Shown here: in pieces, positions 1 to 11,496 of the stretch
Layout: every line of letters begins with the position of its first letter
Position numbering within the stretch: the stretch's first letter is position 1
Virus record (IMG/VR): IMGVR_UViG_2541047847_000003
Coordinates: 1 to 11,496 of that record
DNA: 11,496 nucleotides
DNA from: a virus
Lineage: Duplodnaviria > Heunggongvirae > Uroviricota > Caudoviricetes
Strand: one strand, 5' to 3'
Position numbers and translations under genes: made by a program
Notes under the pieces: model-generated
Seen by the model: the letters and a program-made list of their open reading frames with translations, nothing else
The model's database searches: none
What the model was told of the DNA's origin: nothing

Positions 1-95
1 AGTTTGCTCCTGCCATAACGTGAAGAAGCAATGACCTGGTGGTCCGTGACTTCCCTACGCTGGCATTATCCAGATCAGGTGATACGGGTATTTCT
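1..95 (-). promoter_or_regulatory. thiM: 3' part of the thiM TPP riboswitch (aptamer 3' half plus expression platform); thiM start codon lies just beyond the left edge
   Basis: Reverse complement of 1..95 reads AGAAAUACCCGUAUCACCUGAUCUGGAUAAUGCCAGCGUAGGGAAGUCACGGACCACCAGGUCAUUGCUUCUUCACGUUAUGGCAGGAGCAAACU, which matches the well-studied E. coli thiM thi-box leader as I recall it. Confidence 0.85.
82..95. other. attL core: 14-bp ATACGGGTATTTCT, identical to the copy at 11083..11096
   Basis: Exact 14-bp direct repeat at both island ends; flanking bases differ on both sides (81 g vs 11082 a; 96 t vs 11097 c). The repeat lies inside the riboswitch sequence. Confidence 0.75.
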
Positions 96-235: not shown

Positions 236-1134
236 ATTTGCTGGTGGTTTTGCTTAACCGTTATCATTTTTCGGCTATCCGTCATGAAGCTGGTGGATGA
301 TCACGGATAACCAGGCATCCACAGCGCCTTAAAAAGCTGAACCCGACAAACATTTCTGCTTATCGGGTCCGATCGCTCTTTCTGCTCGTGGCAGATGAGT
401 TTATTGGGAGAGGCGGAAACATTGTATCAGGCTATCCCCTTTCTGTGCTGATTTGCATAGTTGTATATAGCTGTGCGTCCACCAGACACGCAGGAATGGA
501 GTTTGTGAGGAACTATAAATCCTGCGCAAATTTTCCCGGCCCACTCAAATTGAGTTTTCCGAAAATATCAACGGCTTAGGCCAAAGCCCGAAAAAGGGCT
601 TTGTAAAAAATTAACCTAATACGGTCGCTTTAACCTACGGTAATCGTTCTGCTTCGGTGTGTGTCCCCTCTGCGGCCATCATGACCATGCCATAACAAAA
701 ACCCCATATTCGTGGTTTTTCTGTGTCGGGGCTATTCTGCTGTTGCCGTGCTGGTGGATATTCTCCGGTATGCGACTCCCCATATCGGCATCAGGCCCAC
801 CAGCGTGAAGCGTTTTTCATTTTTCGCGGGTATAAAAAATTGATGGGGCTGGCAGTCCGGAAGACGTCAGGGTACAGAGATTTGACCCGCCCCTCCCTGT
901 GCATAAGCACAATAAGTAACAGAAGGCGGAATTCCGCCCTCGGTACTCACATATGAGAAACGATATTTCTTCCACCGATACCCTTTATTTGGGTATCGCG
1001 AGTAAGCCCCAAAATCTGGGTGTTACTCTTACTACCCAAACTACGGGTGGTTTCCGTAGTTTCATGGTCGAGTTGCAGATCTGCAACTCACCCACCAGCC
1101 AACGCAATTTTGCGTTATCGGGAATATCAGGAAT

Positions 1135-1419
1135 CTACCGCCGCAACCGTTCCGGCTTCCTCCACTGGTAAGTATTTTTCGCGCTCTCCCTCCGTTGTTG
1201 AGAACGGCGACGGTATGCCAGCAACTCAAGGACTCTGATCCGTATGTCGCGCATATCCACGCCGTTAAGCTCGATACCGTCACGGCGCATCATCTCAGCC
1301 ACCACACGCGCGTAATTTTCGGCTATCACGCTGTCCGGCTGCGTGGCCTCCTGTTTGCTTGATGGTTGTTTGATTCCGGTAACGCGGCGGATTAATCCCA
1401 GCAATTCAGATTCTGTCAT
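1135..1419 (-). CDS. Small protein immediately downstream of terS; possible lambda gpFI-like packaging accessory protein
   Basis: ORF of 94 aa. N-terminus MTESELLGLIRRVTG resembles lambda FI MTKDELIARLRSLG, and VVAEMMRRDG resembles the FI C-terminal VAAEMTERG, both from memory. The C-terminal 40 aa are basic and low-complexity. Confidence 0.45.
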   Translation of the reverse strand: MTESELLGLIRRVTGIKQPSSKQEATQPDSVIAENYARVVAEMMRRDGIELNGVDMRDIRIRVLELLAYRRRSQQRRESAKNTYQWRKPERLRR

Positions 1420-1430
1420 AGTGCGCTACG

Positions 1431-1958
1431 TTACTTGTCTTTATTCGGCTGCAACTTATCCGGCACATTTCCGGTAGTTTCCATCAGGTAATCAGCCAGT
1501 ATCTGCGGGAGGTTGTCGTCAACTCCGGCACTGGCATTACAGGCTTTAGCCACTTCCTTTTTAAGTCCATCCAGCATAGCCGGAGTCATCTGTGGGAAGC
1601 GCCTTTGCATGGTAAGCGGCAGACTGTCCATGATAGATGAAATCTGACTCGCCAGTTTGGAAAGAACATACATACAAAACTCTGTATCAATAACGTCGCC
1701 GCGTTCGCGCTCGTTTTTAAGCTCCTGCGCCTCTGCCTGTGCTGTCAGTAATCTGATCCTGACGCGTAAAAGTTCATCGTCATCAATATCGCCCGTTTCG
1801 TTTGTAATCTGACTAATTGCATTGTTAACCCGATTATCTATTACACTGGCAACATCATAGAATGCCTCACGGCCCTTACGCTCGACGGGAATCACTCCCC
1901 ACTTATCAAACGCAGTGGCGCTTACACGGCAACTTTTTGCCATGTTTTTTTTGTTCAT
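1431..1958 (-). CDS. Terminase small subunit, lambda Nu1 family
   Basis: Translation aligns with lambda Nu1: RLLTAQAEAQELKNERERGDVIDTEFCMYVLSKLASQISSIMDSLPLTMQRRFP versus RLTRAQADAQELKNARDSAEVVETAFCTFVLSRIAGEIASILDGLPLSVQRRFP. N-terminal DNA-binding region is more diverged. Start chosen at the ATG giving MNKKN; the ORF track extends to 1982. Confidence 0.85.
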   Translation of the reverse strand: MNKKNMAKSCRVSATAFDKWGVIPVERKGREAFYDVASVIDNRVNNAISQITNETGDIDDDELLRVRIRLLTAQAEAQELKNERERGDVIDTEFCMYVLSKLASQISSIMDSLPLTMQRRFPQMTPAMLDGLKKEVAKACNASAGVDDNLPQILADYLMETTGNVPDKLQPNKDK

Positions 1959-2083
1959 CAGGTGCAATTTCATTGATACCACAACTTAATTACTGTTTCA
2001 GGTTGGTGTATTGATTGTATTTTTCTCTTCTTATTCATAGAGATAGAGCGAACAACAAAACCACCACCAGCCCCCTGAAAATG

Positions 2084-2148
2084 CTCATAAATAGCGAAAA
2101 CCCGCGAGGTCGCCGCCCCGTAGCCTGCCGGATCGCCGGAAAGGACCC
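2084..2148 (-). other. Lambda-type cos site (cosQ-like and cosN; 12-nt cohesive-end sequence at 2107..2118)
   Basis: Reverse complement of 2084..2120 is ACGGGGCGGCGACCTCGCGGGTTTTCGCTATTTATGA, identical to the lambda cosN junction and left end. 2119..2148 matches the lambda right-end cosQ region at about 27 of 30 positions. Lies about 130-150 bp upstream of terS, as in lambda. Confidence 0.85.
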
Positions 2149-2174
2149 GCCAGCCAGAACGGGCCCTAATTTCA

Positions 2175-2558
2175 TCAACCAATCAACTTATAGCGACCAT
2201 CCCGTGCATTGCGACGTACACGCTCAATCTTGAGGCATAGCGCCGCATCTGGCTTTTTGGGGACAGGTACGCGGCAATATTCAGAAGCTCGAGGAATATT
2301 GTTTATCCAGTCGATCACTTCACTTAAATACCAGGCCTTACGCCCTTCCGTAACCTGTACGCGTTCGGGGAACTCTCCACGAGCCTCAAGGTTTAGCAAT
2401 GTGCGACGGCTAAGGGTAGTAAGTTCCATCACCTGATTCATATCAACAAGGCGTTCACTTAAACGCATTTTGTCAGCAATAGCCTTTAATTCCTCTACTG
2501 CTGGATCCGGATACATCATTTCGGCAATTGGCTTAAGGTCATTGTAATGATTCTGCAT
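2175..2558 (-). CDS. AlpA/Vis-family HTH protein (second copy), 127 aa
   Basis: Central segment LTTLSRRTLLNLEARGEFPERVQVTEGRKAWYLSEVIDWI matches the AlpA-type HTH pattern. GGGGGA Shine-Dalgarno 4 nt upstream of the ATG; sits between the decoration gene and cos. Confidence 0.65.
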   Translation of the reverse strand: MQNHYNDLKPIAEMMYPDPAVEELKAIADKMRLSERLVDMNQVMELTTLSRRTLLNLEARGEFPERVQVTEGRKAWYLSEVIDWINNIPRASEYCRVPVPKKPDAALCLKIERVRRNARDGRYKLIG

Positions 2559-2569
2559 TGTATCCCCCT

Positions 2570-2911
2570 TTACACACGAGCCAGCGGCTGAACAGAAATA
2601 CCTGAGCCAACAAACGCGGCAACCTTTGCCGACAGTTCTCTTACAGACTCAGGCCAGTTCAGAGCATCAACATTTAAAACACCTGTCTTATAAACCTGTG
2701 CCTGTGTTTTTTTCGCTGTGTCGATTTGTACAGCGGAAACATAAACCGCTTTGCCTGCGCTCGTTCCATCCCATACCACTAGCGCACCAGTTGCATCTTC
2801 CTGCATCAGTGGCGTAAACGCAGGTATTACCCCTTTATTGGCTGAAAATATCCCCAGCGTAGTAACCAGTGCTTCAGTGCCAGACATGAGTTCAGTGTAA
2901 TGAGTAGCCAT
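2570..2911 (-). CDS. Head decoration protein, lambda gpD-like
   Basis: 113 aa. FTPLMQEDATGALVVWDGTSAGKAV parallels lambda gpD [25 protein letters not shown]; similar length. GGGGGAG Shine-Dalgarno 9 bp after the MCP stop. Confidence 0.8.
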   Translation of the reverse strand: MATHYTELMSGTEALVTTLGIFSANKGVIPAFTPLMQEDATGALVVWDGTSAGKAVYVSAVQIDTAKKTQAQVYKTGVLNVDALNWPESVRELSAKVAAFVGSGISVQPLARV

Positions 2912-2920
2912 TGCTCCCCC

Positions 2921-3967
2921 TTAGCCAATGCGAACGGTAACAAAACGATTGATGCGGGCCGGTATTGGCTGTGGTGCTGAATGTGTCTGCACATATTCAA
3001 TAGCCGGATCACCAGGCACAATATAGTTTTTCGGTGCAAGTTCGGCTTTAGTCAGCCCCATCCGAATTAGCTCCGGATCCTGAATACCGCCATAAGCGAC
3101 AATCCCCTGAAGAGCCGTATTGCCAAGCACCATCAAATCAGGATCAAGGAAATATTTTTCAGTTCCGTCCTCGTCGGTATAACGCCCGCTGTAAACAACA
3201 ATCGCAACATCGCCCATATACCCTTTAAAACTCACCGAATCACCAAGGTCTTTAAGGGCCGTTTCCAGTTCGGAATTAGAACCTCGACGGGTATCCAGAG
3301 CCTCTTTTACAGCTCTGAATGAGCGGTATTTTTTCCATACATTGCCGCCCATAATAATGATATTAGTGACTCCCTCACTAAATTCTGCGTAGCTCTCAAT
3401 ATCATCATTTGGATCAAAAGATCCTTTATCCTTACCTGACCACTCAGCACCGCCAGACTGAGTGATGATATTTTGTGGTTTAATATTCCAGTCCAGTTCA
3501 TAACGTTCAATACCATCGCCCTCAATGATATTTTTCCCCGTTGTGATTGCCTGAACAGCAAGCCATTCAATACGTGCACGTATAGCTTTAGCCTGATTTA
3601 CAATCGCCTGTTTAACTTTAATATTACGCGCCCCAAAAGCATTGTATTGTTCAGGTGATACACCAGCAGGGCGCACAGCTAACTTATTTGGATCAATGCT
3701 GCTTTTCGGTTTCATATAGCCAGGGCGAATTGTTTTTGATTCGTATCCCTCATCTCGTGAAACTTTACTGCCCACCATAGGAGAGCAAAACGCCGCGATC
3801 GGGATATTTGGATCGTCGATCGTATCAAGAATAATGTCTCTCGATTCAAACATTACCGAGCGAGTGAAAAACAAACTGGTAAACAACGCATTTAATTTTT
3901 TTTGCACATCTTCAGCATTAGCCACCTGCACAAGCTGTGTAGGCGAATATAAATCAACCATACTCAT
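2921..3967 (-). CDS. Major capsid protein, lambda gpE family
   Basis: Long collinear similarity to lambda gpE, for example NIITQSGGAEWSGKDKGSFDPNDDIESYA and AVKEALDTRRGSNSELETALKDLG and GDVAIVVYSG. Start set at MSMVDLY (lambda begins MSMYTT) with AAGAGG just upstream; the ORF track start at 4048 is probably an upstream extension. Confidence 0.9.
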   Translation of the reverse strand: MSMVDLYSPTQLVQVANAEDVQKKLNALFTSLFFTRSVMFESRDIILDTIDDPNIPIAAFCSPMVGSKVSRDEGYESKTIRPGYMKPKSSIDPNKLAVRPAGVSPEQYNAFGARNIKVKQAIVNQAKAIRARIEWLAVQAITTGKNIIEGDGIERYELDWNIKPQNIITQSGGAEWSGKDKGSFDPNDDIESYAEFSEGVTNIIIMGGNVWKKYRSFRAVKEALDTRRGSNSELETALKDLGDSVSFKGYMGDVAIVVYSGRYTDEDGTEKYFLDPDLMVLGNTALQGIVAYGGIQDPELIRMGLTKAELAPKNYIVPGDPAIEYVQTHSAPQPIPARINRFVTVRIG

Positions 3968-4132
3968 CCTCTTTACATTCATTACAAATAATTGTGAATA
4001 TATTCTATTACCGATGTCTGCTATGCGAATACATGCAACCAAGTGCAATGTTGTATAAAATCTGCCGTGACAACTTCAGTGCTGATAATTCGTGTTAATG
4101 TATTTACTTCCTTTGGTCGGGATTTATGTAGC

Positions 4133-4171
4133 ATGCCGGAAAATCTATTTTCTTCCGGCATTTTTTTATTT
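4133..4171 (+). terminator. Intrinsic-terminator-like hairpin with T-run on the plus strand
   Basis: ATGCCGGAA (4133..4141), 11-nt loop, TTCCGGCAT (4153..4161), then TTTTTTTATTT. On the minus strand the hairpin has no U-run after it. Confidence 0.45.
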
Positions 4172-4178
4172 GCAGAAT

Positions 4179-4601
4179 TTAAAACGGTATATTATCGCCG
4201 TACGGATCATCATTCCCCGACTGTTGTTTTGCCCTGTTCAGTGCGTCAGTAGCCTGGCCCTGTTGACCTTTTTTGCCGCCCGGTCGCGCCGTTCTGGCAC
4301 TGATTACACTGTCTGCGATAACCTGCCAGCCCTGCCGCGTTTCGCCGTTCTGGCCTGTCCACTGGCTTACCTGCATGTTACCCGCCACGCTCACCAGTTC
4401 GCCTTTGTGGTGTTTTGCCAGTGCGTCGGCCTGTCTGCCAAACGCCAGGACGGATAACCACATCGTCGCCGTTCCGTCATCTGCCTGGCTGCACGGAAGT
4501 GGGACCGCCATACTCGCCATCGTCATTTGTGTACCCTTGCTGGTGGTCTTTAACTGCGGGTCAGCCACCAGCCGCCCGTAAGCCGCTATCTGTGCTGTCA
4601 T
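4179..4601 (-). CDS. Single-stranded DNA-binding protein (SSB-like)
   Basis: 140 aa with an OB-fold-like pattern (WLSVLAFGRQADALAKHHKGELVSVAGNMQVSQWTGQNGETRQ), a Gly/Gln-rich linker and a C-terminal DDPYGDNIPF resembling the SSB DDDIPF tail. Confidence 0.7.
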   Translation of the reverse strand: MTAQIAAYGRLVADPQLKTTSKGTQMTMASMAVPLPCSQADDGTATMWLSVLAFGRQADALAKHHKGELVSVAGNMQVSQWTGQNGETRQGWQVIADSVISARTARPGGKKGQQGQATDALNRAKQQSGNDDPYGDNIPF

Positions 4602-4843
4602 GCTGTCTGCTCTCCGGTTTTAACGTTGATGGTTGTCACCTGTTCCGCTTCGGCAATCTCCCGTTCTGTCAGCGTGGCAAAGTTTGCAGCTGCCGTTGTC
4701 ATGAATGAGCTAATCAGTTCGGGATGTGCTTTCGCATATCCTTCCCCGGCGTTGCGGTCGATGATTTTTATCGACACCCTTAACCAGTGTTCCGTCAAAT
4801 CAAGGGCGTGCGATTGTGATTTTTTTGTGTGCTTCGCTGTCAT
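4598..4843 (-). CDS. Hypothetical protein, 81 aa, translationally coupled to ssb
   Basis: ORF whose stop overlaps the ssb start by 4 bp (ATGA); no recognisable motifs. Confidence 0.45.
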   Translation of the reverse strand: MTAKHTKKSQSHALDLTEHWLRVSIKIIDRNAGEGYAKAHPELISSFMTTAAANFATLTEREIAEAEQVTTINVKTGEQTA

Positions 4844-4895
4844 AGGCTTTATCTCACAGCAGTAAATTAAAATTTTTGCGTTTTAACCCTTCACC

Positions 4896-5116
4896 TGTTC
4901 ACCTTTTGATATTTTATCTTTTAATTCATAATGTTAAGGGGTGAACAGTTTCACAAAAACTATTCACCAACTGTTCACCACTGTTCACCCTTGAAGCTCA
5001 ATAAACAATCAAAAAGGTGAACAGTGAATAGTTTGGTGAACAGTTCATAAATAACTGTTCACCCTATAACATACTGATACAAAAGATATTTATGACAGGG
5101 TGAACAGTGGTGAACA
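4896..5116. repeat. Origin-like iteron cluster: about 10 copies of TGTTCACC/GGTGAACA in both orientations with AT-rich spacers (P4 ori/crr type)
   Basis: TGTTCACC at 4896, 4972, 4982, 5056; GGTGAACA at 4940, 5016, 5035, 5099, 5109; variants at 4961 and 5024. Immediately downstream of the alpha-like gene. Confidence 0.85.
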
Positions 5117-5130
5117 GTTATTCCATAAGT

Positions 5131-6948
5131 TTAATTTTTGCTATCGTCATTAGTGACCGATACACATGATGGCATCCAGTCTTCTGATTCCTCCGTCAGT
5201 GTCACGTTTGAACGCAAACCGTGCTTCGTTTTCCGTTTCATATACTCCCTGCCATATTCCGCCATTGCCCCCGGCATATCTTTACCGAAGCGCGTCAGTG
5301 TTACAGGTTTACCAAACCCATGTGCCCTCATATAAGCCAGATAGGCATGATAGAGATACCTGCGTGGGCTGAATGGCACAATTTCAGCATTACCCACTAA
5401 CAGGCCATCACACATTACCGACGCCATGAGATAGCCGCAGAAGTCCACCAGCGAATCCCCCTCTCGCTTTATCGCCAGTGCTTCTTCAGATTTCTGCTGC
5501 TCATATAACAGGCGTCTGGCTTCGTCCTGGTCAGCAAACCGTGTAAGCAGATGGCGAATCACTACCGCCAACTCACCTTCTATTTTTTCCGCCAGCATTG
5601 GATCGCGTTCGTTCTCCGGTACAACTTCCGAAAAATTGAATATCACCCGACGACGTGAGATCCCCCCGCTGCGGTCACTGAATGACATGGCGTTATTGTT
5701 AACCGCCAGCACTACTGCCGGAATACGCGTTGAGTAGGGGGCTTTGTGTTTCGGGTCAATTGCCACCTTGTCACCGCCTGTAATGGCCTTAATTCCTGCC
5801 CCATCACCAGCGTAGCGGGTCATATCCGGCATGATAATCAGCGAAAAGCCAACCACTAACGCGCGTTCCCTTGCATCTTCCAGCGCCTTCATGCTTGCCG
5901 ATACTGTGTTGGCCTTACCCGCCAGCATGGTGCAAATCTCCGCCATCACGCTTTTACCACTTCCCCCTGGACCTGTTACCTCAATGAATAACTGCCAGTC
6001 GTACCGGTTCGCCAGCACCATGAATAATGCAGCCAGTACGCGATCCGCCTTGCGGTCATTCTCAGCCACCGAACGGCGTAACCACTTCCAGAAATTCGGC
6101 GCATGTGTTGCCAGCGTTTCCCCCTCTGCTGGTGGGCTGAAAGGTAATTCACTGGCAATTAACAACCAGTCGTTTTTGTTATGCTCCCGAAAATTACCTG
6201 TTCTGGTATCAAATACCCCGTTACTGAATCCAATCAGGTTACGGGCTGTATTCCCCATTACAGGCAAACTTAACTTCATGGTATCGACCGCCGATTTAAT
6301 GGCGTTCTGCGAATAGCTGATCTCTGCATCAATGAAAATCTGCGCCATAGCTCGCTGTAATTCTTTATCCTGTACTGGCTCCCATACAACGCCGTTGTAA
6401 TGGTGAACAGTGTCAGAGTCAGCATGAATCGCCAGTTCACCGCCATAATGTGCCAGGAGAACTTCGCCGCGTTGACTTGCTCCCATCTGGTTAAGCGCCA
6501 GTGATGAAGCGTTATCGTCTTTTACCCGCTCTTTTTTCTTTACAGGCAGTTCAACTACCTTTTTCTTTTCCGCCAGCTCTGCCCGTTCACGTTCCAGATA
6601 TTCGCGCCAGTTCTCCCGTTTCTGGCTGTGCATTCCTTCAGGGTAATAATCAGCATCCCTGACACCTGCCGCTGCCAGTTTCTGCCCGATGGTATTAACA
6701 AGCCCCGGACGCAATAACCCCGCCTGATAGAGACGCACGCGATAGCGTCCGTCCGGTACGATTTGCAGGTTGTCCAGTTCGGCAAGTTGTTGCTCTCCAA
6801 GCCAGACAGGAGGCACGTTATCGCCAGCCAGTCGCCCGTCCTGTTCCTGCCACTGCTTCGCATGTGCCCACGCATCACTACCCGCAAAAATGATGACTTC
6901 CGTCATTTTGTCACGCGGCTGGTGTTTTAAATTTGGCGCTTTTTTCAT
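5131..6948 (-). CDS. P4 alpha-like replication protein (primase/helicase family, D5-type P-loop NTPase)
   Basis: Walker A GPGGSGKS and a Walker B-like hydrophobic stretch; adjacent TGTTCACC iterons. Start set at the ATG giving MKKAPNL (GGAGAGAG upstream); the ORF track start at 6963 is a GTG. No primase catalytic motif was identified by eye. Confidence 0.8.
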   Translation of the reverse strand: MKKAPNLKHQPRDKMTEVIIFAGSDAWAHAKQWQEQDGRLAGDNVPPVWLGEQQLAELDNLQIVPDGRYRVRLYQAGLLRPGLVNTIGQKLAAAGVRDADYYPEGMHSQKRENWREYLERERAELAEKKKVVELPVKKKERVKDDNASSLALNQMGASQRGEVLLAHYGGELAIHADSDTVHHYNGVVWEPVQDKELQRAMAQIFIDAEISYSQNAIKSAVDTMKLSLPVMGNTARNLIGFSNGVFDTRTGNFREHNKNDWLLIASELPFSPPAEGETLATHAPNFWKWLRRSVAENDRKADRVLAALFMVLANRYDWQLFIEVTGPGGSGKSVMAEICTMLAGKANTVSASMKALEDARERALVVGFSLIIMPDMTRYAGDGAGIKAITGGDKVAIDPKHKAPYSTRIPAVVLAVNNNAMSFSDRSGGISRRRVIFNFSEVVPENERDPMLAEKIEGELAVVIRHLLTRFADQDEARRLLYEQQKSEEALAIKREGDSLVDFCGYLMASVMCDGLLVGNAEIVPFSPRRYLYHAYLAYMRAHGFGKPVTLTRFGKDMPGAMAEYGREYMKRKTKHGLRSNVTLTEESEDWMPSCVSVTNDDSKN

Positions 6949-7244
6949 TTCTGCTCTCTCCACGCGGCAATCATGTTTTTCAGTTCCTGTAGTTTTTTAT
7001 CCACATCCACACGTGACACATGGTTATTTCTGGAAGTCGGGATTTCCCGCCGGAATCTGCAAATAAAGATCTCCACGTTCAGCGAACTAAGAAATGAATA
7101 GCCATCACGAATAAAATACACACGGTCAAACATCAGTTCTTTTACCGTTACTCTGTTACCGTTCTTATCCAGATAAATAGCGCCGGGGATAATTTTGGGG
7201 TGTGCATAACCGCTGGCAGTCAAGCCAGATAAATATGTTCTCAT
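6945..7244 (-). CDS. Hypothetical protein, 99 aa, translationally coupled to the alpha-like gene
   Basis: Stop overlaps the alpha start (ATGA); no recognisable motifs. Confidence 0.55.
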   Translation of the reverse strand: MRTYLSGLTASGYAHPKIIPGAIYLDKNGNRVTVKELMFDRVYFIRDGYSFLSSLNVEIFICRFRREIPTSRNNHVSRVDVDKKLQELKNMIAAWREQK

Positions 7245-7250
7245 GATTAT

Positions 7251-7571
7251 TTATCCCCGATTTGAATCAGTATTCGCTTTCTTTATGGCATTTAATGCAT
7301 CTGTGGCATTTTCAATGGTGCACCGTAACGAAATATCAAACTGCCCAAGCATTGCCAGTAACAAACCGATATTACCCATATCAATGCGCATAGCCTTTTC
7401 GTCATAGTCCTCATTTTCTGACGCATGCCACATCAGACTACCAATTGACGCAACAGCCATTGATATATTGTCAGTAGCCCCATCCGCAGCGGAATAAACC
7501 TTTTTAGCAATATCATGCTCACAGTTAAAATGCGGATTAATCAGGTACTGGTAATTTGACATATCAGGCAT
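7251..7571 (-). CDS. Hypothetical protein, 106 aa
   Basis: ORF in the same operon; its start overlaps the stop of the upstream 67-aa ORF (ATGCCTGA). Confidence 0.55.
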   Translation of the reverse strand: MPDMSNYQYLINPHFNCEHDIAKKVYSAADGATDNISMAVASIGSLMWHASENEDYDEKAMRIDMGNIGLLLAMLGQFDISLRCTIENATDALNAIKKANTDSNRG

Positions 7572-7767
7572 GGCACACCCCCTGACGAATACGGGCGGCG
7601 AATACCATCACGCAGCCAGCCGGGGATTGCTGGCGTGCTTCCTGTTCGCTGGTGGCCACGATGTGAATCACGCGCGGTTGTGCGGTGCTCAGGGCGATAA
7701 AACGCCAGATGTATTTATTCAGGTCGTGCGAGTCCCGCCCTTGCGGGTGTGTGGTATGATTTCTCAT
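7564..7767 (-). CDS. Hypothetical small protein, 67 aa, first gene of the replication operon
   Basis: Internal ATG of the 320-aa track ORF, preceded by GAGG; the sequence upstream in that frame looks non-coding. Stop is coupled to the next gene. Confidence 0.45.
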   Translation of the reverse strand: MRNHTTHPQGRDSHDLNKYIWRFIALSTAQPRVIHIVATSEQEARQQSPAGCVMVFAARIRQGVCHA

Positions 7768-7863
7768 AGCTACCTCGATACGCTTTCTATCGTTGGTGGT
7801 TAGAAGCCCGGTTAGTGTTAGCGCACTGCCGGGTTTCGTCGTTTCTGCACCTTGCATCAACAA

Positions 7864-7917
7864 GGTGTTGAACACCAATTTAAGCCTAGGTGTTAAACAC
7901 GTCAAGTGTTGAACACT
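7864..7917. promoter_or_regulatory. Three operator-like inverted repeats (GGTGTTGAACACC, GGTGTTAAACAC, AGTGTTGAACACT) in a divergent promoter region
   Basis: Repeats at 7864..7876, 7889..7900 and 7905..7917. The third overlaps a candidate -35 (TTGAAC) placed 17 bp from CATACT for the plus-strand gene. Confidence 0.6.
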
Positions 7918-7966
7918 TATTTTTTTTCCTGCATACTGCATTTGTTTTTTGTAAGGGGTACACAAC

Positions 7967-8146
7967 ATGGCGACAAAAGCAGTAAACGCAAAATCACAAA
8001 CAGTTGCGGCAAGGGTTCCGCATGAAGTTATGAACAATGTTGAGGCGGTAAAAATGCCTGGTGAAAGTACAGGGCAGTTTGTAACAGCAGCATTAAAGCG
8101 AGAAGTTGAATACCGCCAGCGTCGCAAGGCCAAAGAGCAGGAGTAA
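7967..8146 (+). CDS. Small ribbon-helix-helix-like protein, 59 aa; candidate repressor
   Basis: Below the ORF-track length cutoff. AGGGG Shine-Dalgarno 8 nt upstream. Pattern QTVAARVPHEVMNNVEAV...GESTGQFVTAALKRE fits a beta-strand/helix/helix RHH layout. Confidence 0.5.
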   Translation: MATKAVNAKSQTVAARVPHEVMNNVEAVKMPGESTGQFVTAALKREVEYRQRRKAKEQE

Positions 8147-8203
8147 CCATCACCAGCGCCGTGGTGCGGTGAACTGTGGCGCACAGGGTTACAGGTATCT
8201 ACG

Positions 8204-8383
8204 ATGACTGACAAATCATTAAAGAAATTATCCTCATCCAAGAAAAAACAACGCAAAAATGCGGTAAACGAACATGAACCGGAGAGATTCGCACCATGTG
8301 CGTTTGTCCTTGAGAAGTACCTTAAAGAGTATTCTAGGAAAATACGCTCATTGCAGGCATGGCAGCGAATCGAGCCAGACTGA
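8204..8383 (+). CDS. Hypothetical small basic protein, 59 aa
   Basis: ORF found by hand downstream of the RHH-like gene and before the plus-strand terminator; weak Shine-Dalgarno. Confidence 0.3.
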   Translation: MTDKSLKKLSSSKKKQRKNAVNEHEPERFAPCAFVLEKYLKEYSRKIRSLQAWQRIEPD

Positions 8384-8447
8384 TAGCATTGCCCACCAGC
8401 CAACAACCTGGTATTCTGGATATGCTCAAGTTTAGTGTTATGCCACT

Positions 8448-8477
8448 GGCGACCGCCCTTGGTCGCCTTTGTTTTAT
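8448..8477 (+). terminator. Rho-independent terminator (plus strand)
   Basis: GGCGACC, loop GCCCTT, GGTCGCC, followed by TTTGTTTTAT. Confidence 0.6.
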
Positions 8478-8494
8478 GTGTCATAGCTCCCCCC

Positions 8495-8719
8495 CTACGC
8501 TGCCTTACCTGAATTAACGCGGTCACGGCTTTGCACCCAGTCCATAACTTCGGAAAGCAACCAGCCTACAGAACGCCCCCCAAGATTACGGCGAGACGGA
8601 AAGCCCCCTTTCTTCTCCAGTTCGTAGCGTGTAGTACGGCTGACGCCTGTTAACTTACGACATTCATCTTCACGAATTACGCGATCTGTTAGTGATTGAA
8701 ATTGTGTATTTTGATTCAT
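8495..8719 (-). CDS. alpA: AlpA-family transcriptional regulator / excisionase-like HTH protein
   Basis: 74 aa; RKLTGVSRTTRYELEKKGGFPSRRNLGGRSVGWLLSEVMDWV matches the AlpA/Vis-type HTH pattern; GAGGG Shine-Dalgarno. Confidence 0.8.
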   Translation of the reverse strand: MNQNTQFQSLTDRVIREDECRKLTGVSRTTRYELEKKGGFPSRRNLGGRSVGWLLSEVMDWVQSRDRVNSGKAA

Positions 8720-8822: not shown

Positions 8823-9677
8823 TTAATTTTCATTAGATAACATTTTTCTTATTTTTTCTAAAGAATCGCTGCGCATTATTTTTTCTAAGAAGGGTTTTAC
8901 AGTCTGAGCAATAGCAAAGGTGTCCTTTTCACCATCAGGATACAAAGATACGGCAAGCACCCCTAATGAAATTTTTCTATCTGTAGACAACTCCCAAGAT
9001 AATAAGTCAATTAATGGGATTATCTTATAATCAATAATTTTACGTCGTATGCTCTCCCAACTTCCTGCAATTGGTTTGTCTGGCTCAACAATTGAAAGTT
9101 CACTACGCCATTTTGGTAATAGTTTTGTAAACGCTTCAATCAACTCATCATCTCTGTTATGTAGTAAGTCAACAGAAACAAGCATATTATCTAATGTATC
9201 AGAAAGGAGATTCACTGGTTCACGCATCACAGCCCAAAACATCCCATTATCTTCTGATATTAAACTTCCAACCATCTCATTATCTATGATGATTGGTTTA
9301 TCCTTCCAATATCCTCTTTCCGCAGTCAGTTTATTAATCATTGATATATCAAACCTTGTTACAGGTTTAATTCCATCATCATAACTTAGCTCAATTAACT
9401 TCGGCTGCACTTTATGGTCATATTCTTTTTGTTTATCACAAAACCAATCGTCTTCTTTCAGCTCTCCAAATGGATCCCCATAATTATTATGCAACGGGTA
9501 TTCAGCACCAAACATAAAACCATATTCAGGCATCTCAGAATGTTTCATTGTTAAATCATCTTGTCGCCAATATAATTGGCGAAATAGATCTTTATCCGAC
9601 AAGTTTTCTAGGCAATCATATTTGCCTAAATCAAATGACTTTGGTAAATCTTTTTTACTATTTACTTTTTTCGTCAT
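8823..9677 (-). CDS. Hypothetical 284-aa protein, AT-rich cargo gene immediately downstream of int
   Basis: Long ORF whose start overlaps the int stop by 4 bp. Visibly more AT-rich than the neighbouring genes (not computed). No motif I recognise. Confidence 0.7.
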   Translation of the reverse strand: MTKKVNSKKDLPKSFDLGKYDCLENLSDKDLFRQLYWRQDDLTMKHSEMPEYGFMFGAEYPLHNNYGDPFGELKEDDWFCDKQKEYDHKVQPKLIELSYDDGIKPVTRFDISMINKLTAERGYWKDKPIIIDNEMVGSLISEDNGMFWAVMREPVNLLSDTLDNMLVSVDLLHNRDDELIEAFTKLLPKWRSELSIVEPDKPIAGSWESIRRKIIDYKIIPLIDLLSWELSTDRKISLGVLAVSLYPDGEKDTFAIAQTVKPFLEKIMRSDSLEKIRKMLSNEN

Positions 9678-10894
9678 TGTATCCCTCTCAATATCACAAT
9701 ATTTTCATTATATCCTGCAATCATATCAAGACGCTCAACCCATAGATGCAGTGCGTCCCGTTTCGCCTGCAAATAGCGTGAATGGTTATAGGTTTTTTGC
9801 TGACCTGGCATCTGATGCGCTGTGATGTGCTCCACGATATGCGGATCGACACCTAAATCATTCAGCATAGTTGTAAACGTGTGTCGGAAATCATGCAGCG
9901 TCCAGTGTTCCTGCTTAAGCCGCTTATGCGCATTTCGTCCATATTGCGCCACCGTGGTATCTTTTTTCAGTTCGCCGAGTAATAACCCAGTGTGTGCGTT
10001 TTGCTCCACCAGCTTCTGAATGAACGGCAAAATACCATCAGGAATAGGTCGGAATATTGTTACCTTCGTTTTGCTGTGCTCTTTTGGCACTGTCCACAAC
10101 ATTTCTTTCAGATCCCATTCTTTGATCTCTGAAAGTCTGATCTCTGCCGTTCTGCACCCGAACACAATTAACAAGCGCATTAACGCACTGTAATAGGGAG
10201 CGAACACATCACCATCAATAGCGCGTAGAATTTCTTTTAGTTCGCTGTTGCTGTGCACTCTCTCGCGGATTTCTGCTCTCTTACCCACATCAGTAACGAT
10301 CAAATCGTCCAGGGCGTTGCTAAACGCGTAGCGCCGCCTGCGGCAAAACTTTAGCGCCTGTTTGCATGTCTGCATGACATGGCCCGCTGCTACTGGTGCT
10401 TTTTTTCGTACGCGGTCAAAACATGCGATCCACTGCCTTGTATCACACTTATCAAGGGGAATTGCCCCGATATGGCAAATGATGTGCTTATCCATACGCT
10501 GCACCAGCTTTATGTAATCTTTGCGGTTATCCTTCGCGTATTCCTCCAGCCAGTAGTTAATCGCTTCCTTCACCGTAACGGGTTTTAGTGCTTCCTGTAC
10601 TGTGGCGCACAACTCATACCGAGGGTTTTTACCCTCAGCCAGCCATGCCCGGCACTGTGTTCGCTTTTCCCTTGCAGATTTCAGCGACAATTCCGGGTAA
10701 GCCCCCAGCTTTAACCGCTCTGCGGCAACCTCACGGCCTCCCGTTCGGTACCGGAAATACCAGGTTAATTTACCTCCCTTTGAGTGTTTAATCTCCAGCC
10801 CGCCCCCGTCGGAGTAAAAACGTTCTTTTTCTGCCTGGACAGCCACCAATTTTTTTAACGTTGAATCGCTCAGTTTGTTTAGTGCTTTTCCCAC
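9674..10894 (-). CDS. int: Tyrosine recombinase, P4-type integrase family
   Basis: 406 aa. N-terminal arm-binding-type region (GGKLTWYFRYRTGGREV...LGAYPELSLKSAREK); C-terminal catalytic motifs HDFRHTF and YNHSRY; GTG start. Confidence 0.9.
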   Translation of the reverse strand: MGKALNKLSDSTLKKLVAVQAEKERFYSDGGGLEIKHSKGGKLTWYFRYRTGGREVAAERLKLGAYPELSLKSAREKRTQCRAWLAEGKNPRYELCATVQEALKPVTVKEAINYWLEEYAKDNRKDYIKLVQRMDKHIICHIGAIPLDKCDTRQWIACFDRVRKKAPVAAGHVMQTCKQALKFCRRRRYAFSNALDDLIVTDVGKRAEIRERVHSNSELKEILRAIDGDVFAPYYSALMRLLIVFGCRTAEIRLSEIKEWDLKEMLWTVPKEHSKTKVTIFRPIPDGILPFIQKLVEQNAHTGLLLGELKKDTTVAQYGRNAHKRLKQEHWTLHDFRHTFTTMLNDLGVDPHIVEHITAHQMPGQQKTYNHSRYLQAKRDALHLWVERLDMIAGYNENIVILRGIQ

Positions 10895-10928
10895 TATCAG
10901 ATCCTCTTTTCAGTCCTCCAGCCTCAAA

Positions 10929-10995
10929 AAACTGACCACACAACTGACCACACATTTCGCTGAAACTCGGCAAACAACAACGAACAGCAACAAAC
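10929..10995. repeat. int-proximal arm block: tandem AACTGACCACAC x2 plus CAACAACGAACA-type repeats; homologous to 161..235
   Basis: AACTGACCACAC at 10929..10940 and 10941..10952, about 30 bp upstream of the int start. Confidence 0.6.
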
Positions 10996-11082
10996 GAGAA
11001 AGCCAATTAAATCATTGTATATCAAACATATACACAAACAATCACGAACATCCCAGAACTACAAAAAACACTAAATGAGAAA

Positions 11083-11096
11083 ATACGGGTATTTCT
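11083..11096. other. attR core: ATACGGGTATTTCT
   Basis: Identical to 82..95; continuous on its right with chromosomal thiM leader sequence. Confidence 0.75.
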
Positions 11097-11127
11097 CAGC
11101 CTTCACAAAGAAGGGCACCCCGAGTCG
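11083..11127 (-). promoter_or_regulatory. thiM: 5' part of the thiM TPP riboswitch aptamer, separated from its 3' half by the island
   Basis: Reverse complement reads CGACUCGGGGUGCCCUUCUUUGUGAAGGCUGAGAAAUACCCGUAU, the 5' half of the thiM aptamer including the conserved CUGAGA element. Confidence 0.8.
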
Positions 11128-11223
11128 TTTGGTTGCGATAATAAATCGCAGAGGAGGATGGTAATGTCCAGCGCACGCGTTGTAAACGGGGAAAAACGGC
11201 GGTATTACAATAACGTTGTGAAA

Positions 11224-11496
11224 TTATTTGATATAAGAATCCAGCACCTTCAGAACGACATCCAGATCTTCTTCTCGTTTTAGCTCATCCCCCTGGTGAA
11301 CGATGTGTTCCGTCAGATGGCCTTTAATCACTTCCCGCATCAGACCGTTTACCGCGCCACGGATAGCAGCAATCTGTTGTAAAACTGCAGCGCATTCATG
11401 CGGTTCGTCGAGCATTTTCTTGAGCGCCACGACCTGGCCCTGAATCTTACTGGCACGCGCTTTCAGTTTCTGTTTATCACGGATTGTATGAGACAT
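11224..11496 (-). CDS. rcnR: Ni/Co-responsive transcriptional repressor RcnR (CsoR/RcnR family)
   Basis: 90-aa translation [61 protein letters not shown]... matches E. coli RcnR as I recall it; complete CDS ending at the window edge. Confidence 0.85.

Follow-up and report, generated by a model that had tools for sequence, protein, structure and literature searches.

The window, by which we mean the whole 11,496-nucleotide stretch of DNA that was analysed, contains an 11-kb island inserted by site-specific recombination at a 14-bp core inside the aptamer of the thiM TPP riboswitch. The insertion itself is of the textbook kind; the riboswitch as an integration target is new, and the significance of the finding is otherwise modest. 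At one junction, attR, the integrase gene of the island, int, lies downstream of the thiM promoter and of the 5' half of the aptamer. Judged from the sequence, a TPP-independent chimeric thiM-leader::int transcript is plausible, since no terminator or Rho-loading tract is predicted ahead of int and the aptamer there is incomplete. That read-through from the thiM promoter contributes measurable int mRNA is a proposition for and against which the case appears evenly balanced.

The features of the two junctions were as follows.

11224 to 11496, minus strand: rcnR, chromosomal, upstream of and co-directional with the thiM promoter (from the open reading frame list; annotated as rcnR in every matching genome)
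11158 to 11186, minus strand: thiM promoter, with a -35 box TTTACA at 11186-11181, a 17-bp spacer and a -10 box TACCAT at 11163-11158
11083 to 11132, minus strand: 5' half of the thiM TPP aptamer, consisting of the P1 5' strand, P2, P3 and J3-2 and ending in the core; co-linear with the annotated K-12 riboswitch
11076 to 11098, minus strand: imperfect inverted repeat TGAGAAATA-CCCG-TATTTTCTCA across the core; up to and including TTTTCT it does not vary among the seven aligned loci
11083 to 11096, unstranded: attR core, a 14-bp repeat in the crossover region, found again without change at 82-95; homology to the empty site stops at 11083
10895 to 11082, minus strand: island arm (P') of 188 nt between the core and int, its RNA rich in U and G and poor in C, with an AT-rich centre
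10930 to 10995, unstranded: arm-type repeat module, with the doubled 12-mer GTGTGGTCAGTT at 10930-10955, 36-101 nt upstream of the int GTG
9674 to 10894, minus strand: int, an open reading frame for a P4-type tyrosine integrase of 406 residues with a GTG start and a Shine-Dalgarno sequence, AGAGGA (10907-10902), 7 nt upstream
339 to 370, minus strand: terminator-like hairpin with a stem of 14 pairs and then a T-run, close to the end of the island on the thiM side
82 to 95, unstranded: attL core, the other copy of the 14-bp exact repeat
1 to 95, minus strand: 3' half of the thiM riboswitch (P2 3' strand, P4/P5, P1 3' strand and the expression platform with the thiM Shine-Dalgarno sequence); the thiM ATG is immediately beyond base 1

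The gene order in K-12 is rcnR, a 91-nt spacer, the annotated TPP riboswitch, thiM and thiD. On its minus strand, the window begins with rcnR and ends, at position 1, with the base that precedes the thiM start codon, and these two K-12 neighbours are split in it by about 11 kb of foreign DNA. When the segment 10900-11496 was compared by megablast with 5,426 complete E. coli genomes, a full-length match was found in 72, and in about 5,300 the match started only at query base 184, which is window position 11083. The latter, empty-site genomes have an annotated TPP riboswitch and rcnR at the matching stretch, and their homology to the window ends exactly at 11083. The core, AGAAATACCCGTAT on the minus strand, is present in exactly two copies in the window, where none would be expected by chance. 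In the empty site of K-12 (L001), GGCTGAGAAATACCCGTAT is followed directly by CACCTGATCTGG, and in the window the same GGCTGAGAAATACCCGTAT is followed by TTTCTCATTTAG. The empty site can thus be written GGCTG-core-CACCTGATCTGG, attR as GGCTG-core-TTTCTCATTTAG and attL as TTAGTA-core-CACCTGATCTGG. The repeated core, the comparison with the empty site and the junction at 11083 together establish that the insertion was site-specific and lies in the aptamer. The inverted repeat at 11076-11098 is probably a pair of core-type binding sites for the integrase. A search of the literature, of incomplete coverage, for links between thiM or a TPP riboswitch and an integrase, prophage, PICI or rcnR returned no relevant paper. 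The locus is of more interest for the use of a riboswitch as its site of attachment and for what becomes of thiMD at the other junction.

The piece of leader retained at attR comprises the first 67-69 nt of the thiM leader and holds the pyrimidine-sensing arm only. Its aptamer portion was nearly identical to that of K-12, differing at two bases of the P3 loop; at this loop (window 11107-11109) the window and most of the Salmonella loci have CUUCUUUGUGAAGG, compared with CUUCUGCGUGAAGG in K-12, a natural polymorphism. The remainder of the aptamer, P4/P5 and the P1 3' strand, is found at 35-81, beyond the island and 11 kb from P1-5', P2 and P3. The pyrimidine-sensing arm (P2/P3 with CUGAGA) and the pyrophosphate-sensing arm (P4/P5), which are required on one RNA closed by P1, are not on one such RNA in the window. 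Against the Rfam TPP model (RF00059), which has a gathering score of 54.3, the attR hybrid gave 20.7 bits at 11033-11132 on the minus strand; only P1-5', P2 and P3 were aligned, and P4/P5 was replaced by unalignable island sequence. The attL hybrid gave 34.4 bits, also under the gathering score, and no TPP aptamer reached that score anywhere in the window. These scores, and the fact that P4/P5 and the P1 3' strand lie at the opposite end of the island, bear out the claim of a preliminary description of this DNA that the truncated aptamer no longer has a TPP-bound fold. The reconstruction of a functional aptamer at attR by island DNA, in the manner of tRNA targets, was considered and rejected on the same 20.7 bits, P4/P5 being an unaligned insertion.

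The E. coli thiM TPP riboswitch was reportedly described by Winkler in 2002 and by Serganov in 2006. Compared with it, the 50 nt upstream of the junction are a genuine P1-5', P2 and P3 behind a genuine promoter, whereas the int side has neither P4/P5 nor the P1 3' strand and is also without the expression platform and Rho site. With part of its aptamer missing, it is not expected to respond to the ligand. TPP does not act on the thiM promoter but controls thiM at translation and through a Rho site within its codons 1-34 (Bastet 2017, PMC5499598), the native elements being sequestration of the Shine-Dalgarno sequence and a C-rich, G-poor Rho tract inside thiM (PMC5499598). The platform that sequesters the Shine-Dalgarno sequence and the thiM Rho site both stay with thiM at attL.

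The int open reading frame is uninterrupted, contains the motifs GCRTAEIR, HDFRHT and, at the C-terminal end, HSRY, and was called identically by the NCBI annotation pipeline in strains 751 and C21. The protein matched the Pfam domains Arm-DNA-bind_3 (PF13356, 1.1e-17, residues 8-94) and Phage_integrase (PF00589, 8.2e-17, residues 216-374) and the integrase family phrog_1 (3.4e-65). It is accordingly predicted to be a P4-type tyrosine integrase in which the arm-binding N-terminal and the catalytic C-terminal domains are both present. The GTG codon is 188 nt past the core and about 256 nt past the thiM start site, on the same strand. An exact 26-mer at 161-186 and 10930-10955 lies within a 66-nt direct repeat (161-226 and 10930-10995) that is 86% identical. 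Measured from the core centre of the reconstructed attP, one doubled motif is about 85 bp upstream and the other about 147 bp downstream. The doubled arm motif is kept, with variation, in the Salmonella relatives, as GTGCGGTCAGTG or GTGAGGTCAGTT, and one of them has three copies. The preliminary description had placed int (start 10894) behind the thiM promoter and the aptamer 5' half on the minus strand, with arm repeats between attR and int, and each of these elements was found where it had been put, the repeats being the copy of the 66-nt repeat at 10930-10995. One figure needs correction: the interval between attR and int that it had set for a terminator should be bounded at 10895 and not at 10995.

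The thiM promoter, TTTACA-17-TACCAT, was the sole match of at least 9 of 12 consensus positions in a sigma-70 scan of 10700-11496. Its score is only 9 of 12, which counts against read-through. In the numbering of Bastet et al. (2017, PMC5499598), thiM codons 9-40 are nt 174-271; this places the AUG at +150 to +152 and the start site 149-151 nt before it. The start of thiM transcription is therefore inferred to lie at about 11150-11152 in the window, 6-8 nt past the -10 box. The equivalent position in Salmonella has TTTACA-17-TATGCT within a spacer that has otherwise diverged. Between the rcnR stop codon and the thiM promoter (11187-11223, minus strand), the consensus scan predicted no terminator. 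For this reason nickel- or cobalt-induced transcription of rcnR could also enter the thiM leader and, in carriers of the island, continue towards int.

Downstream of the promoter, the consensus scan found no terminator-like site on either strand of 10700-11496. When all hairpins across the leader were scored together with the following 15 nt by the d'Aubenton-Carafa formula, in which a terminator needs a score above 0, the best value was -30. A terminator between attR and int, a finding that the preliminary description had named as decisive against read-through, was thus predicted by neither method. The inverted repeat across the core was examined as a terminator and rejected; its RNA hairpin is weak (-5.1 kcal/mol) and the U-run is 8 nt away. 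The 256-nt leader had no C-rich signature of a Rho-loading tract. G exceeded C throughout the island part, and the C/G ratio downstream of attR was 0.29-0.56, which is atypical of a Rho-loading site and the opposite of the Rho tract inside thiM. Rho termination or degradation can nevertheless affect a 256-nt untranslated leader even without a recognisable signature. No significant structure was found for the chimeric leader as a whole (z-score -1.08).

The genes of integrases of this kind adjoin attP with the 5' end facing it, so that integration sets int downstream of attR, co-directional with the intact thiM promoter. These observations suggest the following sequence of events. RNA polymerase from the thiM promoter, and perhaps from rcnR, would meet no predicted terminator, and some of it would cross attR into int. 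TPP would have no effect on the chimeric mRNA, given its partial aptamer and the loss of the native control elements, which were left at attL. Read-through would most likely add a low basal expression of int, and control would still be exerted by a weak promoter in the arm and by integrase or AlpA on the repeats there. The position of int is best explained as a side effect of the usual attP-int layout, not as a circuit built for the purpose.

If thiM transcripts reach int, the supply of integrase in carriers would depend on a host housekeeping promoter. The integrated and the excised island would then also differ in this supply, a matter of relevance to the stability of the island and to the speed of its exit when a helper phage arrives. 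Carriers include clinical isolates of ST131, and the junction is present in 72 of the 5,426 complete E. coli genomes. The locus offers a clean natural test of the old idea that elements beside structured-RNA genes are transcriptionally coupled to them. If read-through is negligible, the finding is a routine consequence of the attP-int layout.

An integrase gene behind a host promoter is a common layout in this integrase family, and the present case is a variant of a known theme and not distinctive in that respect. Among 1,273 tRNA-adjacent integrase genes, 736 come second, after a tRNA gene that is read from the same strand (Panis 2010, PMC2951348), and a coupling of the integrated element to the tRNA promoter is an earlier suggestion cited in a passage of that paper (PMC2951348). 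The window shares with the STI layout of P4-like and KplE1-like elements (argW-intS, ssrA-intA, leuX-intB; PMC2951348) 1) a P4-type integrase with an arm-binding N-terminal domain, 2) an int gene that adjoins the att junction with its 5' end facing it, 3) arm-type sites between the junction and int, and 4) a position of int downstream of a host structured-RNA gene that has the same orientation. It differs in that the host partner is an mRNA leader, a riboswitch, instead of a tRNA gene. Moreover, a tRNA gene is restored upon integration with its own 3' end retained; the host unit here, by contrast, is cut in the middle of its leader and the target is not rebuilt; as a consequence, read-through is more plausible here than at tRNA genes. 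New in the present case are the mRNA leader as host partner, the target that is not rebuilt and the lack of a predicted terminator between the host promoter and int.

A second comparison is with the PICIs embedded in helper phages, which are co-oriented with the helper late gene that they interrupt and which late transcription of the helper is proposed to enter passively (Tommasini, Mageeney and Williams 2023, PMC10111431). Here too a GN-PICI with a unidirectional int-alpA-pri order lies inside a transcription unit and is co-oriented with it, and the doubled arm motif is placed at fixed distances from the core (about 85 and 147 bp here, 81 and 132 bp there). The target, however, is the leader of a chromosomal housekeeping gene and not a helper late gene, the host promoter has no link to helper induction, and the arm motif is GTGTGGTCAGTT where the embedded islands have TGTATTGC.

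The alternative that survives best is that int is insulated from its surroundings. On this account thiM transcripts would be too few, or would be stopped by a complex of integrase and host factors or by Rho, degraded or left untranslated, and int would be expressed only from an arm promoter under Int and AlpA, as in P4, KplE1 and other PICIs; this is a real possibility whose likelihood falls somewhat short of even. P4 lysogens are said to contain only short 5' int transcripts, a result attributed to Piazzolla in 2006. In P4 and KplE1, int has a dedicated promoter that overlaps the att region and on which both Int and the excisionase act as repressors (Panis 2010, PMC2951348), and this double repression is the documented rule; GN-PICI int genes likewise have their own upstream promoter (PMC10111431). 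In the window, of these P4/KplE1 features, promoter overlap with the arm sites and autoregulation, only weak promoter candidates could be recognised. One, TTGTTT-16-TACAAT at 11041-11014 on the minus strand, emerged from a relaxed scan, and in several Salmonella loci such scanning gave TTTAC(G/C)-16-(A/T)ATGAT at a comparable offset. Such candidates recur in position, 119-148 nt before int, which favours insulation, but they score only 7.5-8.5 of 12, none passed the consensus scan of 10700-11496 and no clear, conserved sigma-70 promoter for int was found.

The arm repeats provide a possible means of insulation, as they lie between the upstream promoters and the start codon, where integrase and host bending proteins could form a block; integrase bound to these putative sites would stop upstream transcripts before int. 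A second candidate means was a pairing in the RNA of the E. coli islands between the 30 nt after the core (11053-11082) and the int initiation region (10875-10919), with an energy of -20.5 kcal/mol (p about 0.012 against shuffled sequences). In ST131, a G-to-A change converts a G-U pair of this duplex to A-U. If formed, the pairing would make long int transcripts poorly translated, an effect that we do not rely upon. The pairing was absent from five Salmonella loci (p 0.18-0.8) and calculations of accessibility were inconsistent, and a conserved long-range pairing as translational insulation was therefore not adopted. The missing signatures of termination, intrinsic or by Rho, count against insulation as well.

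A different alternative accepts the read-through and ascribes it to selection. The placement of int under a constitutive housekeeping promoter only while the island is integrated would provide a pool of integrase for rapid excision upon induction of AlpA by the helper. The ICE clc element, ICEclc, is the precedent for int transcription that depends on the junction: its int transcription depends on the joined upstream DNA, and a strong promoter of the element is fused to int only in the circle, as demonstrated experimentally (Sentchilo et al. 2003, as related in a passage of PMC5812530). The two cases share a P4-family int that abuts the recombination site and an upstream transcriptional context that changes with the state of integration. 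The present one would be the mirror image, because its extra promoter belongs to the chromosome and would be active only while the island is integrated; the switch in ICEclc was demonstrated experimentally, whereas ours is a proposal. We consider such an adaptive capture unlikely, and the relatives of the island provide arguments on both sides.

A search of genome contigs for the locus with the single integrase gave no match, and the relatives were reached through homologous proteins and the contigs that encode them. Integrases 66-74% identical to that of the window (P0002-P0006) were traced to Salmonella contigs, in which int adjoins rcnB. The order in these is the thiM promoter, the aptamer 5' half, an identical core, an arm of 190-220 nt and int, all in the same orientation, and no conserved terminator was found between the thiM promoter and int. 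The same-strand order of host elements and then int (rcnR, thiM promoter, aptamer half, core, int in the window) was thus seen in the window and in six Salmonella loci. The presence of these integrases at the same site indicates that the riboswitch is a long-standing target of the lineage. That site, orientation and the absence of a terminator are common to Escherichia and Salmonella, with integrases down to 66% identity, would fit selection for read-through. However, an asymmetric core fixes the orientation once a site has been adopted, so that conserved orientation alone is no proof of such selection. The spacer between the core and int is poorly conserved among the aligned loci outside the binding-site motifs, which also argues against it. 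Efficient excision needs integrase within a narrow range of concentrations, and in KplE1 an excess lowers the efficiency of excision (PMC2951348), a point against adaptive capture.

A sister clade of integrases, 67% identical, uses an unrelated intergenic site between cspD/yljB and clpS and was found in 365 complete E. coli genomes, a further point against capture as an adaptation. In the locus of this clade at L004 2097-2501 (E. coli, GCA_010686425.1), the junction is at L004:2334 and the arms are rich in TGTTCG motifs, similar to those of the window. The excised circle, in contrast, lends capture some support: int is there preceded by island DNA, and the island-side end has terminator-like hairpins that face the core. 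The hairpin at 339-370 would be situated in the circle about 245 nt upstream of the core and hence upstream of int. In the ST131 variant this hairpin was not found at the corresponding place, and a different one is present.

The last alternative, that attR-specific int transcripts come from a promoter created by the junction, TTGTGA-17-TATTTT (11108-11080, minus strand), and not from the thiM promoter, is very improbable: the aptamer P3 loop supplies the -35 box, and core and island each supply half of the -10 box, so that the two are together only in attR, and it is found at the same position in all eight loci examined, but at 8 of 12 it is a marginal match under the threshold of the consensus scan, each half has another reason to be conserved (aptamer function in one case, core-type binding sites in the other), and the K-12-type P3 loop (CTGCGTGA) has no -35 box.

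Read-through as a by-product of the layout remains the preferred reading at attR. The other junction is the more consequential one. There, thiMD has been left without its promoter and retains just the 3' half of the riboswitch. Synthesis of thiamine de novo requires thiD. No consensus promoter was found in positions 1-1500 of the window, and folding of the thiM-side leader was uninformative as a predictor of ongoing thiM translation. This junction may be a reversible case of 'regulated gene integrity' that acts on an RNA leader. A broader proposal is that the Escherichia/Salmonella PICI lineage gains twice from the riboswitch site, obtaining a TPP-blind supply of integrase from the captured, constitutive thiM promoter only while integrated, and cutting thiMD off from promoter and TPP sensor until excision, as a reversible 'regulated gene integrity' switch on an RNA leader and not on a coding sequence; we regard this as unlikely.

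The element itself has the features of a P4-like Gram-negative phage-inducible chromosomal island (GN-PICI) of about 11 kb, as its gene content showed. Members of this group are 10-20 kb long, with four zones, a unidirectional int-alpA-pri order, an origin after pri and optional late genes (PMC10111431). About 11.0 kb separate the two cores here, and int, AlpA, the D5-type primase, the major capsid protein and terS are all encoded on the minus strand, as are all island genes but one. The order is int, DUF6387, alpA, icd-like, DUF4222, primase, ori iterons, SSB, capsid and terS. After the iterons come the genes for SSB, for a major capsid protein of lambda-E type, for a decoration protein and for the small terminase subunit. 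The features on which the assignment draws, in addition to int, were as follows.

8495 to 8719, minus strand: alpA-type excisionase/regulator (Pfam Phage_AlpA, 4.8e-16; PHROG 'excisionase and transcriptional regulator'), downstream of int and DUF6387
5131 to 6963, minus strand: D5-type primase
4940 to 5123, unstranded: GGTGAACAGT iterons, some as inverted pairs, immediately downstream of the primase gene

The iteron cluster is probably the replication origin of the island. The islands at this site are mosaic. The int-DUF6387-attR module is combined with the lambda-E-type capsid, decoration protein and terS in the window and in strain C21, and in ST131 and related strains it is joined to a ClpP-protease/capsid fusion instead. 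The replication and late part (254-8687) is also found in E. coli with other integrases at other sites. When a phage collection was searched with the integrase protein, the best match was only 50% identical and no excised copy of the island was found in that collection. The island in the window contained no C4/isrK-type immunity RNA at the Rfam gathering score. In two Salmonella islands at the thiM site (L006 5225-6068 and L007 5049-6232), three C4 antisense RNA genes, with interleaved isrK and c4-a1b1 matches, adjoin a Phage_ASH gene. These are immunity RNAs of the P4/P1 type.
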